From: a virus
Taxonomy: Duplodnaviria > Heunggongvirae > Uroviricota > Caudoviricetes
DNA: 64,000 nt
Virus record (IMG/VR): IMGVR_UViG_3300007511_000008
Direction: 5' to 3' (one strand)
Shown here: positions 2,305-5,661 of the stretch, piece by piece
How positions within the stretch are numbered: position 1 is the first letter of the stretch
Layout of the letters: every line of letters begins with the position of its first letter
Program-made: the position numbers and the translations under genes
Notes under the pieces: generated by a model
Told to the model about the DNA's origin: nothing
Seen by the model: only the letters and a program-made list of their open reading frames with translations
The model's database searches: none

Positions 2305-2529
2305 ATGACAGACAAGAAGACTATCAAGGTTACCGTGGCGAAGCTGGGTGCTGACGATGTGATCGTCGAGGTCCCGGATGGATCGGAAGTTTGCAAGGTA
2401 GCGGGGCAGTCCGGCCTCGATACCCGTGGTTGCGTGTTCCAGCTCGACGGCGAGACTGTCGAAGGGACCGAATTGGTTGGTGAGGGCCAGATCCTCCAAC
2501 TCGTCCCCCGCGTCGAGGGAGGGGAATAA
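2305..2529 (+). CDS. Ubiquitin-like beta-grasp protein (ThiS/MoaD/BilA-like Ubl) ending in ...Gly-Gly-Glu.
   Basis: The ~74-aa protein 'MTDKKTIKVTVAKLGADDVIVEVPDGSEVCKVAGQSGLDTRGCVFQLDGETVEGTELVGEGQILQLVPRVEGGE' has alternating hydrophobic beta-strand patterns and a C-terminal GG followed by one residue. It sits directly upstream of the E2-like, JAB and E1 genes. An in-frame GTG at 2293 is also possible. Confidence 0.6.
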   Translation: MTDKKTIKVTVAKLGADDVIVEVPDGSEVCKVAGQSGLDTRGCVFQLDGETVEGTELVGEGQILQLVPRVEGGE

Positions 2530-2601
2530 GAACGTGCGGGTGGGCTGCTCAAAATATCTCGATTAGATAATTGGGCAGCCTGCCCAACAAGGAGGAACCA
2601 G

Positions 2602-4068
2602 GTGGCATACCAGTACAAAACCAACTACAAAGAGCTGGATGAAGCTCTCACGACAGAGGCGGAAGTACTTGGGGCGTATATCATCCCCAGATTCGTTGAC
2701 GTAAACGGGGCAGCCGACGTACACCACAAGCAAGCAGGGATCCCAAAAGCACCTGCGGTATTCCTTGCTATCCAGCAGTATGACGTAGGAAATCCCATCT
2801 CAGAGGCGCGATTGCGTGTGCGGGGCGAAGACCTCACACTCACGAAGCCCATACGCCCAACAAAGACGCCGGGGGTACCGATCGTTGTTAACAACGGCAA
2901 AAAACATGGTACCATAACCATCGGCTCGGTCTACGAGAACACGGTCTACCTCAACTTCAACCTGCCGAACTTTATCAACGCCAAGCGCTACACCAGAACT
3001 GCGCGGGGGAAAACGGGCAACACCGATGGCAGCTTCTTACCCAAACTATTCGCCCAGCACCTCCGTCCAGCATTCCAACTCGCGGCCAAGTTCGACGAAG
3101 GCTACAGCTACGCCGACGAAAAGAGAGTCCACGTCCAGAATGTGCTAAAGACTCAAAAGACGGTCAAGAAAGAGCTTGAGCGCAAAATCTCCGTCCAAAG
3201 GAGGTCTATCGCCAACCACATCCAGGCAATCGAACAAGCAACCTCTAGGCTGGGAGAGATGCAACAGACGCTTGCCGGCCTCGAGGCCGACCAGGTGAAG
3301 CTTGCGAAAAAGGGGGAGACTCGCTTCCGCATCTTCAACAGCTTGTGGGGTAATGGCATTCACGATCTACGGATCGAGCCCACGCACATCATATTCCTCA
3401 CAGCCCCGATCTTCTCCGAAGGGCTACCTTTCGGGCGCTTCTGGGTAACTATCCCGCGGGGCGCAGACCGTCAGTACTCCAATATCACGATCAAGGCAGA
3501 AAACAACACCTACAACATAGGCGGATACGTACACCCACACATCCACGAGAATGGGAGTATTTGCTGGGGCACAGCCGGCACGGTTATTGCGCAATTCCGC
3601 GGGCGGGGACAAGAGATCGAATGTATCCCCATTATCCTGGAGTACCTCCGGACCTACCATCATGACCACCAGTACCGCGCCATTGAGTACTGGGACGAGA
3701 AATTCGGTAAAAAGGGGGATAAAAAGCGAACTGACCGTGGTTCTCGCTGGCGTGAGTGTTACAGTAAGGTTACAGATCCGTACGAGTGTGCAGGATGCTT
3801 TGCCCCGGAATGCCCTTACCGGGACGGTGCCGAAGATCGTTGCTACAGGCAGCGGAACAAGAAGCAGGAGTACATTCGGTGTATGCAGTGTAAGGCCTGC
3901 AATAACTGGAAACACGCCAAAGCTGCCTGCCGGAAAAACCATCAGCAGGACAGGAAGGATTGCGTGGGCTGCCCAGTAACATCATGTACCTACGCCGAGC
4001 CTGAGAAAGTGGCAAAAGCCCGCAAACCCAGACGGAAAACGGCTAAAGGGAGGACTAAGGCCGCATGA
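2602..4068 (+). CDS. Large E2-like (UBC-type) protein. It has a ~230-aa N-terminal extension including a coiled coil, a central domain with an HPN-like catalytic motif and Cys321, and a C-terminal Cys-rich putative zinc-binding tail.
   Basis: GTG start with AAGGAGGAA 7 nt upstream. The motif 'GGYVHPHIHENGSICWGTAG' (Cys codon 3562-3564) resembles the E2 active site HPN-x(3-4)-G-x-IC-L. The coiled coil is 'KKELERKISVQRRSIANHIQAIEQATSRLGEMQQTLAGLEADQVKLAKK'. The C-terminal tail has ~16 Cys in CxxC/CxxCxxC spacing ('ECAGCFAPEC', 'CMQCKAC', 'CVGC'). The stop overlaps the JAB start (ATGA at 4065-4068). Confidence 0.55.
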   Translation: MAYQYKTNYKELDEALTTEAEVLGAYIIPRFVDVNGAADVHHKQAGIPKAPAVFLAIQQYDVGNPISEARLRVRGEDLTLTKPIRPTKTPGVPIVVNNGKKHGTITIGSVYENTVYLNFNLPNFINAKRYTRTARGKTGNTDGSFLPKLFAQHLRPAFQLAAKFDEGYSYADEKRVHVQNVLKTQKTVKKELERKISVQRRSIANHIQAIEQATSRLGEMQQTLAGLEADQVKLAKKGETRFRIFNSLWGNGIHDLRIEPTHIIFLTAPIFSEGLPFGRFWVTIPRGADRQYSNITIKAENNTYNIGGYVHPHIHENGSICWGTAGTVIAQFRGRGQEIECIPIILEYLRTYHHDHQYRAIEYWDEKFGKKGDKKRTDRGSRWRECYSKVTDPYECAGCFAPECPYRDGAEDRCYRQRNKKQEYIRCMQCKACNNWKHAKAACRKNHQQDRKDCVGCPVTSCTYAEPEKVAKARKPRRKTAKGRTKAA

Positions 4069-5003
4069 AAATCAAAGTAGAACCAACAATTTTCCTTCTG
4101 CCAGAAGTCATCACGAAGATCGACATCTGGTGTAAGAAGGCCAAAGGGGAGGTCTCTGGCCTCGGCCTCATCGACATCGATGAAGATGGGGACATCTTTG
4201 TAACTGATGTCTACCTACTTGAGCAAAAGTCATCCAGTGGTAATACGGACCTCGACCAGGAGGCTGTTGGTAACCTGATGACCGAACTCAGAAAGGAAGG
4301 CATCTCAATGTCCAAGCTCCGCTTCTGGTGGCATTCACATGGGAATGGTGGAGTATTTTGGTCGGGAACCGATGACAAGACCATCGATATTCTCGGCAAA
4401 GGCGGCTTTATGGTCTCCATGGTCACCAACAAGAAGCGGGAGAAGAAGTTCCGGATCGGGATGCAGAAACCGCTGAAACTGGACCTGGATGACGTTGGGT
4501 GGAGCCTCGCCTACTTCCCAGACGAAGAGTTTGAGAAGGAGTGCGAAAAGGAATTCGATGAGAAGGTCAAGGAGGTCACGACGATCACTACCTTCAAGGG
4601 TTCCGGAAACTACGGGCACAACCGCTCCGGCCGGGGCCGCTTCTACCATAATGGGCGGTGGCACGACTCCTGGCCCGGTGGCAATGGGGGTTCCCGGACC
4701 GATTCTCCAGGAGGTGGGCTTCATCAGCCCGTCCCTTTTCAGGGAGAGGACACAAGCCCCGGGACAAACAACCCACTCGAAATGCTCCCGTCGTGGGGAG
4801 AAATCCCCGGGACCGACGCAAGAAGTAGAGTCAGCGATCTCGTTGGTCAAGAGATTGAAGAGGTCGATACTCTCTGGCTTATTCTCAACGAAGCGGACTA
4901 CACGGTAGCCGGGCTTGACCAACTCCGTAAGGCTAACAAGATCGAAACTGCGGAGCACAACCAAGCACGCGCCCAACTGAAGGAGCTCGGACTCGATGAC
5001 TGA
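4065..5003 (+). CDS. JAB/MPN+ (JAMM) metallopeptidase, a deubiquitinase/Ubl-processing-type enzyme with a Gly/Pro-rich low-complexity C-terminal region.
   Basis: A canonical JAMM motif is present: an upstream Glu ('LLEQKSS...DQEAVG') and then 'WWHSHGNGGVFWSGTDD', which is H-x-H-x7-S-x2-D. The gene is translationally coupled to the flanking genes, with 4-nt and 8-nt overlaps. Confidence 0.75.
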   Translation: MKIKVEPTIFLLPEVITKIDIWCKKAKGEVSGLGLIDIDEDGDIFVTDVYLLEQKSSSGNTDLDQEAVGNLMTELRKEGISMSKLRFWWHSHGNGGVFWSGTDDKTIDILGKGGFMVSMVTNKKREKKFRIGMQKPLKLDLDDVGWSLAYFPDEEFEKECEKEFDEKVKEVTTITTFKGSGNYGHNRSGRGRFYHNGRWHDSWPGGNGGSRTDSPGGGLHQPVPFQGEDTSPGTNNPLEMLPSWGEIPGTDARSRVSDLVGQEIEEVDTLWLILNEADYTVAGLDQLRKANKIETAEHNQARAQLKELGLDD

Positions 5004-5661
5004 TATCGACAGGAATGCTATGTATCATCGGCAGCTCGATATCCTCGATCCGGAGAAGGCTGCCAAACTCAACGTCACTATTATCGGGGCCGGCGCTATC
5101 GGCTCCTTCACCGCACTCTCCCTGGCAAAGATCGGCGTAACCAACATCACGGTCTACGACGATGACACGGTAGAGCTGCACAACATCCCGAACCAGTGGT
5201 ACAGACTATCGGATGTCGGGAAGAAGAAGGTCATTGCCCTCCGCGAGATTATCGAGCAGTTTACCGGGGTCAAGATTACCGCGATCCCGGAAAAGTTCGA
5301 TAAGCAGAAGGCAAAAGGATTCGTCATCAGCGGAGTCGACTCCATGGATGCTCGCATTGGCATCTGGCAGAACCTCAAGATGCAGTTTCCACAGAGGTAT
5401 CTGGATGCCCGCATGGGAGCGGAGGTGGGGGAGATACACATGGTGAACCCGGCCGACTTCGACAACGCCGAACAGTACGAGGAGAAGCACCTATTTCCCT
5501 CAACTGAGGCTGCTCCAGGAGCATGTACTGCCCGCAGCACAATGTACTGCGCCAGCGGGCTCGCTGCGATCATTGCGGCAAAGGTCAGCAACTTCATCAA
5601 CCAGAGGCCCGACTCGGACCTGATCGTGGACTTCCGAAATATGAAGGTGTTGCCTGTTTGA
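4996..5661 (+). CDS. ThiF/MoeB-family E1-like adenylyltransferase (Ubl-activating enzyme). It is compact, with no rhodanese domain.
   Basis: 'YHRQLDILDPEKAAKLNVTIIGAGAIGSFTALSLAKIGVTNITVYDDDTVELHNIPNQ' matches the E1 Rossmann/nucleotide-binding signature (GxGxxG ... D-D-D-x-V-E-x-S/H-N-x-x-R/N-Q). A downstream region 'CTARSTMYCAS' carries the Cys. Confidence 0.8.
   Translation: MTDIDRNAMYHRQLDILDPEKAAKLNVTIIGAGAIGSFTALSLAKIGVTNITVYDDDTVELHNIPNQWYRLSDVGKKKVIALREIIEQFTGVKITAIPEKFDKQKAKGFVISGVDSMDARIGIWQNLKMQFPQRYLDARMGAEVGEIHMVNPADFDNAEQYEEKHLFPSTEAAPGACTARSTMYCASGLAAIIAAKVSNFINQRPDSDLIVDFRNMKVLPV

Follow-up and report, generated by a model that had tools for sequence, protein, structure and literature searches.

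A four-gene Ubl-E2-JAB-E1 cassette, likely a protein conjugation pathway, in the replication block of a tailed phage

To our knowledge, ubiquitin-like conjugation has so far been shown in prokaryotes only for host immune systems (Cap2 of the cyclic oligonucleotide-based antiphage signalling system, CBASS; Bil; and Bub) and for the small archaeal modifier proteins (SAMPs). Bil operons are ordered as a ubiquitin-like protein (Ubl), an E2, a deubiquitinase of the JAB type and an E1; beyond its conserved Gly, the Ubl carries a short tail that is not conserved and that the JAB peptidase removes, so exposing the glycine, before E1 and E2 conjugate the Ubl, and there is no dedicated E3, the E2 being thought to choose the target (PMC10557695). 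Bub systems work through Ser/Tyr oxyesters with cysteine-less E1 and E2 proteins; their peptidase is fused to the E1, and they include a serine protease of the DUF6527 type (PMC11601596). In type II CBASS, Cap2 is an E2-E1 fusion that conjugates the CD-NTase. Here, we describe a cassette of four genes (Ubl, E2-like, JAB and E1) in a tailed phage of the Caudoviricetes, IMG/VR record IMGVR_UViG_3300007511_000008, of which the whole analysed stretch of 64,000 nucleotides is referred to as the window. Judged by homology and by the Bil precedent (PMC10557695), the cassette likely encodes a self-contained ubiquitin-like protein conjugation pathway of the phage. It represents a distinct, large and unannotated family of Ubl-E2-JAB-E1 cassettes in phages and bacteria, located here in the conserved replication block of the phage.

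The cassette shares with BilABCD the division into four separate genes and their order. This parallel, drawn in an earlier reading made from the DNA letters alone (hereafter the sequence-only reading), agrees with the gene order published for Bil (PMC10557695). All four adjacent + strand genes were present in the list of open reading frames, as that reading had stated (Table 1). Read base by base, the stop codon of the E2-like gene and the start codon of the JAB gene overlap as ATGA, and the JAB stop and E1 start overlap by 8 nt (ATGACTGA), which bears out the stop/start overlaps on which translational coupling had been proposed. The E2-like gene begins with a GTG preceded by the Shine-Dalgarno-like sequence AAGGAGG, and no terminator-like site was found on the + strand in positions 1-9000.

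Several features separate the cassette from Bil. Its E1 is a single adenylation domain of 221 aa, whereas BilD combines inactive and active adenylation domains (IAD+AAD) with a mobile CYS domain (PMC10557695). The E2 active site has HPH eight residues before the Cys and continues as C-x-G-N, in contrast to the Cys..His (CEHH) type of BilB, and its core is embedded in a 488-aa multidomain protein. Moreover, the Ubl is SAMP2/ThiS-like, whereas Bil Ubls are ubiquitin/SUMO/ISG15-like; the cassette is carried by a virion-forming phage; and, unlike type II Bil, it has no adjoining CapH/CapP-type regulator. In PADLOC-DB v2.0.0, the Ubl, E2-like and JAB proteins matched no family (the Bil models in that release were not checked), and the best 25 of the 33 matches of the E1 were all Cap2-type 'E1-E2' models, at about 1e-14. 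Because the cassette departs from Bil in E1 architecture, E2 active-site type and profile membership, we do not regard it as a member of Bil.

An AlphaFold2 (AF2) model of the E2-like protein built from a 79-sequence alignment (predicted local distance difference test score, pLDDT, 86.8) comprised four parts: an N-terminal beta-rich domain, a long coiled coil, a core made of a four-strand meander and helices, and a helical Cys-rich domain. When this model was compared with the PDB by Foldseek, the best 50 matches were all UBC E2 enzymes, so that residues 251-375 are predicted to adopt a UBC fold, which is the structure expected by the sequence-only reading. Against BFVD, the model matched uncharacterised phage proteins as well as E2s of giant viruses or African swine fever virus. 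Residues 311-323 read HPHIHENGSICWG. An hhalign comparison of the family profile with human UBE2D2 (prob 87.4%, E 3.7e-6; the UBE2D2 sequence used was taken to be that of the human enzyme) placed HPHIHENGSIC on HPNINSNGSIC, and Cys321, the candidate catalytic residue, therefore falls on the catalytic Cys85 of UBE2D2. The UBC-like catalytic motif read earlier is thus in register with that of a ubiquitin E2, with His instead of Asn as its third residue. Compared with eukaryotic UBC/E2 enzymes (UBE2D2/UbcH5b, UbcH7, Rad6), the protein is alike along this motif, but has HPH for HPN and C-x-G-N after the Cys, and its core is flanked by the N-terminal beta domain, a coiled coil of about 100 residues and a 12-Cys C-terminal domain.

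These active-site residues were nearly invariant among the best 150 relatives: C321 was present in 148 of 148 sequences, P312 in 147 of 147, G323 in 147 of 148, H311 in 146 of 147 and H313 in 145 of 147. A word-indexed search for relatives returned just three, and an exhaustive profile search of 1.84 billion cluster representatives returned 1,336 proteins at E<=1e-3, including 166 at E<=1e-10. No further relatives with a name came from a profile search of 5.8 billion proteins that used the 79-sequence alignment, and a scan of IMG/VR with a 4-sequence E2-like alignment confirmed none. The protein had no match in Pfam, PHROGs, PADLOC or NCBIfam; Pfam UQ_con did not match it, and matched only one of 79 relatives, weakly (E 0.0024). 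Likewise, tblastn against 50,697 phage records found nothing, and neither the protein alone nor a 4-sequence profile gave anything meaningful against PDB sequences.

The domains of the E2-like protein differ in conservation. Relative to two related phage loci, L001 and L004, identity was 45-59% in the UBC core and 44-49% in the Cys-rich domain, versus 33-37% in the N-terminal domain and 24-31% in the coiled coil; in distant family members, the alignment only began at about residue 145. The slower evolution of the UBC core and the N-terminal part left unaligned in distant members fit a protein in which a recognition module that varies is attached to a catalytic core that is conserved. In the Cys-rich domain, 12 Cys were invariant in the close group and six were at least 90% conserved in the wider family, with the spacing CxxCxxxxCP occurring twice, plus CxxCxxC. 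A CxxCxxCC-type protein is also encoded about 4 kb downstream of the segment for this domain.

For the third protein, the canonical JAMM site H-S-H-x7-S-x2-D named in the sequence-only reading was complete, with E29 in addition. Among 28 cassette JABs from independent loci, E29, H90, H92, S100 and D103 were invariant, and S91 was kept in 27. A three-sequence JAB profile matched only JAMM deubiquitinases in the PDB (Rpn11, CSN5 and BRCC36), weakly (best E 0.026), and the catalytic residues aligned with the Rpn11 site. The protein consists of a catalytic domain (aa 1-175), a Gly-rich linker and a conserved C-terminal helical segment of about 50 aa. In one relative (P0004, on a JGI contig of 40 kb), two genes, encoding 100 and 185 aa, stand where JAB would be expected; this JAB gene may be split, frameshifted or interrupted.

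The E1 scored 75.5 bits against Pfam ThiF (cutoff 28.1), with the domain covering residues 18-201. Its profile matched the active adenylation domain of Uba1 (1e-10), as well as MccB, ThiF, UBA5 and Cap2. In NCBIfam, all matches were sub-threshold (ThiF, MoeB, MoeZ, PRTRC-ThiF, 6A-MBL Cap2_3 and UbaA). Of the ThiF/MoeB motifs proposed earlier, the GxGxxG and the signature were both borne out, although the signature reads Y-DDD-T-V-E-L-H-N-I-P-N-Q and had been given with one T missing. The 24 cassette E1s from independent loci keep GxGxxG, D55, D57, N63, Q67, K78, D115, R120 and R139, and Cys177 is conserved in 23 of them.

The Ubl starts at an ATG, since gene product P0151 is identical over all 74 aa and the homologues begin at the same place; an in-frame GTG at 2293 was considered as the start and is unsupported by either. 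The C-terminus of this putative beta-grasp protein reads VPRVEGG-E, in agreement with the GG-E ending noted in the sequence-only reading, E74 being the removable residue. In five close homologues, VPRVEGG is invariant and followed by a single variable residue (E, C, R, K or D), which indicates a precursor that requires trimming. The window Ubl alone had no family match in Pfam. A nine-sequence profile that included the Ubls of distant cassettes matched SAMP2 of P. furiosus (5lda_B, E=1e-9) and PF1061 (1rws, E=1.9e-9), the SAMP2/PF1061 alignment being full length up to the terminal GG. Moreover, the Ubls of two of these distant cassettes (L008 and L010) were above the gathering score of Pfam ThiS. 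The last Arg of the Ubl stands at -4 from the GG, and trypsin would thus leave VEGG (+342.154 Da by residue masses) on a modified lysine; di-Gly-remnant proteomics, recommended in the sequence-only reading as a check, would miss the conjugates, as would K-GG antibodies, and is not suitable.

Archaeal sampylation (SAMP1-3/UbaA/HvJAMM1 and PfJAMM1-SAMP2) also resembles the cassette. P. furiosus SAMP2 is the closest solved relative of the Ubl, the E1 is likewise of the small MoeB/ThiF type without a separate Cys domain, and a JAMM protease serves as processing or deconjugating enzyme. Sampylation, as far as we know, has no E2, whereas the window cassette has an invariant UBC-type E2 core; furthermore, the E1 reached 34 bits against UbaA, for which the equivalog cutoff is 450. 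Bub and CBASS resemble the cassette as prokaryotic conjugation systems of the E1/E2/peptidase/Ubl type, and the E1 adenylation region matches the 'E1-E2' models of Cap2. Membership of Bub (6E/DUF6527) was rejected, as the cassette encodes JAB and E1 by two genes and its E2 family keeps an invariant Cys; no DUF6527 protein was found among the neighbours in a Pfam scan. A remnant of CBASS Cap2/Cap3 was rejected as well: E2 and E1 are separate genes and not the fusion found in Cap2, and no CD-NTase or effector was found among the neighbours scanned.

Table 1. Coordinates of the cassette, of its motifs and of neighbouring genes in the window
Feature	Position	Strand	Remarks
Ubl precursor, 74 aa	2305-2529	+	SAMP2/ThiS-like, putative beta-grasp; VPRVEGG + E74; gene product P0151 identical
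Ubl G72-G73	2518-2523	+	
RNA stem-loop	2537-2586	+	Spacer between Ubl and E2-like genes, just 5' of the E2 ribosome-binding site; no U-tract
E2-like multidomain protein, 488 aa	2602-4068	+	UBC core with HPH311-313 and Cys321; GTG start at 2602
E2-like N-terminal beta-rich domain, aa 1-145	2602-3036	+	AF2 model
E2-like long coiled coil, aa 146-250	3037-3351	+	AF2 model
E2-like predicted UBC-fold core, aa 251-375	3352-3726	+	AF2 model; four-strand meander and helices
E2-like HPH311-313	3532-3540	+	
E2-like Cys321	3562-3564	+	Candidate catalytic Cys
E2-like helical Cys-rich domain, aa 376-475	3727-4026	+	AF2 model; 12 invariant Cys
E2-like stop/JAB start overlap	4065-4068	+	ATGA
JAMM/MPN+ metallopeptidase (JAB), 312 aa	4065-5003	+	E29, H90-S-H92-x7-S100-x2-D103
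JAB E29	4149-4151	+	
JAB H90-S-H92-x7-S100-x2-D103	4332-4373	+	
JAB stop/E1 start overlap	4996-5003	+	8 nt
Minimal E1, 221 aa	4996-5661	+	ThiF/MoeB-type adenylation domain only; Pfam ThiF above cutoff
E1 G31xG33xxG36	5086-5103	+	GxGxxG
E1 Cys177	5524-5526	+	
494-aa protein	5716-7200		Directly 3' of E1
PD-(D/E)XK nuclease	7205-8545		After the 494-aa protein
CxxCxxCC-type protein	8364-9176		
AAA ATPase, 535 aa	12282-13889		
Very large open reading frame, 1,400 aa	18571-22773	-	Tail-sheath match at the C-terminus
Very large open reading frame, 2,094 aa	44791-51075	-	

The spacer between the Ubl and E2-like genes is 72 nt long and contains an RNA stem-loop with a minimum free energy of -34.3 kcal/mol (z = -4.9), matched by none of 200 shuffles. 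The same spacer holds GC-rich hairpins of different sequence in L001 and L004. By stabilising the transcript or by attenuation, this stem-loop may set the ratio of Ubl to enzymes.

That the cassette lies inside a phage genome, as the sequence-only reading had it, is supported by the terminase, portal-like and sheath-like genes of the window. A terminase large subunit (PHROG 675, 1.6e-55), portal-like and head-maturation-protease-like proteins and a DnaB helicase were identified, and a tail-sheath match was located in the last ~200 residues of the 1,400-aa protein of Table 1. An identical E2-like protein was also found on a 182.7-kb contig. At the nucleotide level, positions 2000-6000 had no match among 50,697 deposited phage genomes.

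Synteny of the cassette extends to contigs of related phages, 121 kb, 22 kb and 40 kb in length. Compared with L001 and L004, identity was 73-76% for the E1, 71% for the Ubl, 49-53% for the JAB protein and 41-42% for the E2-like protein; among the neighbours, it was 73% for the PD-(D/E)XK nuclease, 66-74% for the AAA ATPase and 31-58% for the others. Since the Ubl and E1 are as conserved in relatives as core replication genes, a recent capture is argued against. The accessory setting claimed earlier for the cassette was accordingly not retained: its location in a phage holds, but the surroundings are a conserved replication/recombination block, vertically kept in related phages. The same observation disfavours the option of a hijacked defence cassette.

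To describe the distribution of the family, we scanned DNA with the degenerate motif GY.HPH.{4}G..C.GN. This gave 5 IMG/VR contigs of up to 180 kb and, in GTDB species genomes, 21 contigs, all of them metagenome-assembled genomes (MAGs), from Myxococcales, Planctomycetota, Gammaproteobacteria, Zixibacteria and Chloroflexota. With hidden Markov models made from the window proteins, E2-like, JAB and E1 genes were found in that order in nearly all scanned loci, usually with a small GG-type Ubl before the E2-like gene; short metagenome contigs showed the same order. Variants were also observed. One Gammaproteobacteria MAG (L028) carries two complete tandem cassettes in the order E2L-JAB-E1-Ubl, and, among bacterial loci, one (L026) has two E2-like genes in tandem and another (L038) lacks the JAB gene, has the Ubl last and is flanked by a thiamine pyrophosphate (TPP) enzyme and an aldehyde dehydrogenase. 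Two further MAG loci are flanked by IS21 IstA/IstB (L018) or by a 1,212-aa NOV_C protein (L037). As these flanks are clearly those of cells or mobile elements, the E2-like family extends beyond phages. Chance open reading frames were rejected as an explanation, the motifs being invariant across relatives and the gene order recurring in dozens of unrelated contigs.

In phage contigs, the genes beside the cassette are often involved in DNA metabolism. The PD-(D/E)XK nuclease adjoins it in the window and in L004; Rad52 and PD-(D/E)XK genes lie beside it in L008, RuvC and a Mre11-type phosphoesterase in L014, and ParB-HTH and AAA genes, as in the window, in L015.

The window E1 also found ThiF-like genes in 88 deposited phages; carriers were FpV4-like Flavobacterium phages, crAss-like phages including crAss001, and Xanthomonas jumbo phages. 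In FpV4 (L006, gp53-gp50), bajarodcaudo virus 1 and crAss001 (L017, Gp79-Gp76), the E1 is preceded by three genes. The module, positionally equivalent to the window cassette, is that of cultured crAss-like and FpV4-like phages (loci L006, L007 and L017). Like the window cassette, the modules of crAss001 and FpV4 contain a JAB protein, which hhalign matched to the profile of the window JAB at 90%, and an E1 of the ThiF type (34% identity to the window E1), and they too are part of a replication block, with PD-(D/E)XK or exonuclease VIII genes close by. Their middle protein, of about 420-444 aa, has an invariant GYMHSH...C.G motif, and a further protein is Ubl-like over its N-terminal ~85 residues, which end in KSG(G), but differs from the window Ubl by a C-terminal extension of 135-200 aa. 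The GYMHSH protein gave a non-significant hhalign result against the E2-like profile (prob 1.25%, E 0.042) and nothing against UBE2D2. The motif-for-motif line-up therefore has no statistical support, and we do not claim these proteins as E2s. In the crAss001 and FpV4 records, the module genes are labelled only 'thiamine biosynthesis protein' or 'metalloprotease'.

If the cassette works as its homologies suggest, a 74-aa pro-Ubl would be made with one extra C-terminal residue, and the JAMM peptidase would remove residue 74 to expose Gly73. Gly73 would then be adenylated with ATP by the minimal E1, which is of the ThiF type, probably forms a homodimer as ThiF, MoeB and Uba5 do, and may hold the Ubl as a thioester on Cys177, after which the Ubl would be passed to a thioester on Cys321 in the UBC-fold core of the E2-like protein. 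The additional domains of this protein (lineage-variable N-terminal beta, coiled coil and Cys-rich, of metal-binding type) would constitute a built-in substrate selector, and we infer an E3-like role for them that would make the protein an E2/E3 hybrid. The final acceptor of the Ubl would be a lysine in a single target protein or in a small number of them, and the JAMM peptidase could also reverse the mark. The four genes would share a single + strand transcript, on which E2, JAB and E1 would be translated in a coupled manner, and the stable hairpin that follows the Ubl gene may ensure an excess of Ubl. Because the cassette is long-standing and vertically inherited in the replication/recombination block, we favour a role in the phage's own infection programme, through modification of phage or host proteins, over a fresh capture of a defence island.

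Several points weigh against this conjugation pathway. Every one of its chemical steps is deduced from homology and from the Bil precedent. The E1 is a single adenylation domain that has neither the inactive domain, nor the inserted catalytic-Cys domain, nor the ubiquitin-fold domain (UFD), and a search of its C-terminal half against the PDB, made to relate Cys177 to a known catalytic Cys, gave chance matches only. The JAB protein scored 16.5 bits against Pfam Prok-JAB, below the gathering cutoff of 25. An AF2 model of the Ubl from 5 sequences (pLDDT 52.9) was too poor for a fold search. For the Cys-rich domain of the E2-like protein (aa 376-475), no fold or family match was found, and it could bind Fe-S rather than Zn. 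Furthermore, the nearest families of the Ubl (SAMP2, ThiS and MoaD) include sulfur carriers, Ubl, JAB and E1 triads also occur in sulfur-transfer pathways (PMC1779556), and the presence of the same family in bacterial chromosomes keeps a defence-type role in play.

The last of these points leads to an alternative in which the chemistry is the same and the role is one of defence or competition, the cassette being a Bil-like immune module for superinfection exclusion of rival phages, or a counter-defence device by which host immune proteins are tagged or competed with. The gene order is indeed that of the antiphage BilABCD operons (PMC10557695), and the bacterial MAG copies beside an IS21 transposase, a giant NOV_C protein or metabolic genes resemble small mobile islands, the form in which defence systems occur. 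Moreover, the tandem cassettes of L028 and the duplicated E2-like genes of L026 suggest diversifying pressure, and evolution is rapid in the N-terminal domain of the E2-like protein. We nevertheless consider a defence role unlikely for the phage cassette. Unlike typical accessory defence cargo, it is syntenic in its phage lineage, with a Ubl and an E1 as conserved as core replication genes, and it recurs beside recombination and replication genes in unrelated phage contigs; in addition, three of its proteins have no PADLOC family, the match of the E1 to the Cap2 models is limited to their adenylation part, and the regulator expected next to type II Bil is missing.

Sulfur transfer is the next alternative. 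The JAB-trimmed Ubl, once adenylated by the E1, would be converted to a C-terminal thiocarboxylate and give up its sulfur for a phage-specified thio-modification of a nucleotide, DNA, tRNA or cofactor, and the Cys-rich 488-aa protein would be a sulfur-transfer or insertion enzyme. This would agree with a Ubl nearest to ThiS, MoaD and SAMP2, with ThiF, MoeB and MoeZ as best, though sub-threshold, NCBIfam matches of the E1, with the 12 invariant Cys in CxxC-type spacings, with the DNA-metabolism block around the cassette, and with the fact that the triads known in sulfur-transfer pathways have a C-terminally extended Ubl (Iyer et al. 2006, PMC1779556). It is contradicted by the predicted UBC fold and by an HPH..C that falls on the HPN..Cys active site of ubiquitin E2s and is near-invariant in the best 150 relatives. 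We know of no sulfur-carrier pathway that needs an E2. The E1 also has no rhodanese domain, and no sulfurtransferase or cysteine desulfurase was found among the neighbours scanned, so that a sulfur carrier appears improbable.

A third explanation, that the Ubl is not conjugated at all and forms with JAB a cleavable assembly chaperone like lambda I and K, next to an unrelated E1 and E2-like protein, could draw on the known phage TAPI/TAPK-type Ubl and JAB pairs (PMC1779556), on a weak contact of the Ubl profile with lambda tail tip assembly protein I (E 0.051) and on the long tail of the crAss001 and FpV4 Ubl-like domain, cuttable by JAB, but it is very improbable given that dozens of independent loci contain all four genes in an unchanged order, that E2, JAB and E1 are translationally coupled, that the tail genes lie far off, on the opposite strand and in a different block, and that a single residue after the GG leaves no cargo to release.

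Conjugation thus being the preferred reading of the window cassette, a wider proposal can be formulated. Several unrelated tailed-phage lineages would run their own Ubl cascade in the replication/recombination block, tagging phage or host proteins to control infection, and the HPH-Cys family would be an ancient viral and bacterial E2 branch with a built-in E3-like module. The lineages would include the ~180-kb phages described here, other IMG/VR phages and, through a very diverged protein in the E2 position, the crAss-like and FpV4-like phages. We put this forward tentatively, as a possibility that we find somewhat doubtful. No published description of a phage-encoded E1/E2/JAB/Ubl cascade or of the E2-like family, and no published link of crAss-like phages to ThiF or ubiquitin, was found in a literature search of incomplete coverage.

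Other genes around the cassette were also recorded. The 494-aa protein directly 3' of the E1 keeps its position in relatives and is fast-evolving (36-41% identity), with weak SMC/Rad50-type coiled-coil matches in its C-terminal half; the cassette might have this protein as a partner or as a target. It is followed by the PD-(D/E)XK nuclease (73% conserved). Upstream of the cassette (35-1192 / 1464-2219 region), we found an SPFH/Band-7 protein (Pfam 3.9e-15) and a protein of about 211 aa that had 57% identity to relatives and no family match; by eye, the latter contains an E-S...GLWQ string like the lytic transglycosylase motif. The AAA ATPase has 535 aa in the window versus 865-887 aa in relatives (L001, 1-554 and 20085-21413; L004, 15747-18100), in which intein-splicing/HNH Pfam matches were obtained; these matches and the greater length indicate an intein in the relatives that the window copy does not have. 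Finally, two very large open reading frames are present on the - strand (Table 1).

The chemistry proposed here is in itself what would be expected from Bil, CBASS and Bub. What the window adds is a complete Ubl-E2-JAB-E1 set that a virion-forming phage has conserved and inherited vertically, with an E2 that keeps a eukaryote-like HPx..Cys active site although its family, of more than 1,300 cluster representatives, is unrecognised by domain libraries. The minimal 221-aa E1, together with the putative E2/E3 hybrid, provides a system for studying the origin of E2 and E3 functions, and, since crAss001 and FpV4 can be cultivated, their modules bring the wider idea within reach of experiment. If the cassette is active, phages as well as their hosts would use ubiquitin-type tagging, and a search for its targets would open among host defences, replication or recombination factors and virion proteins.

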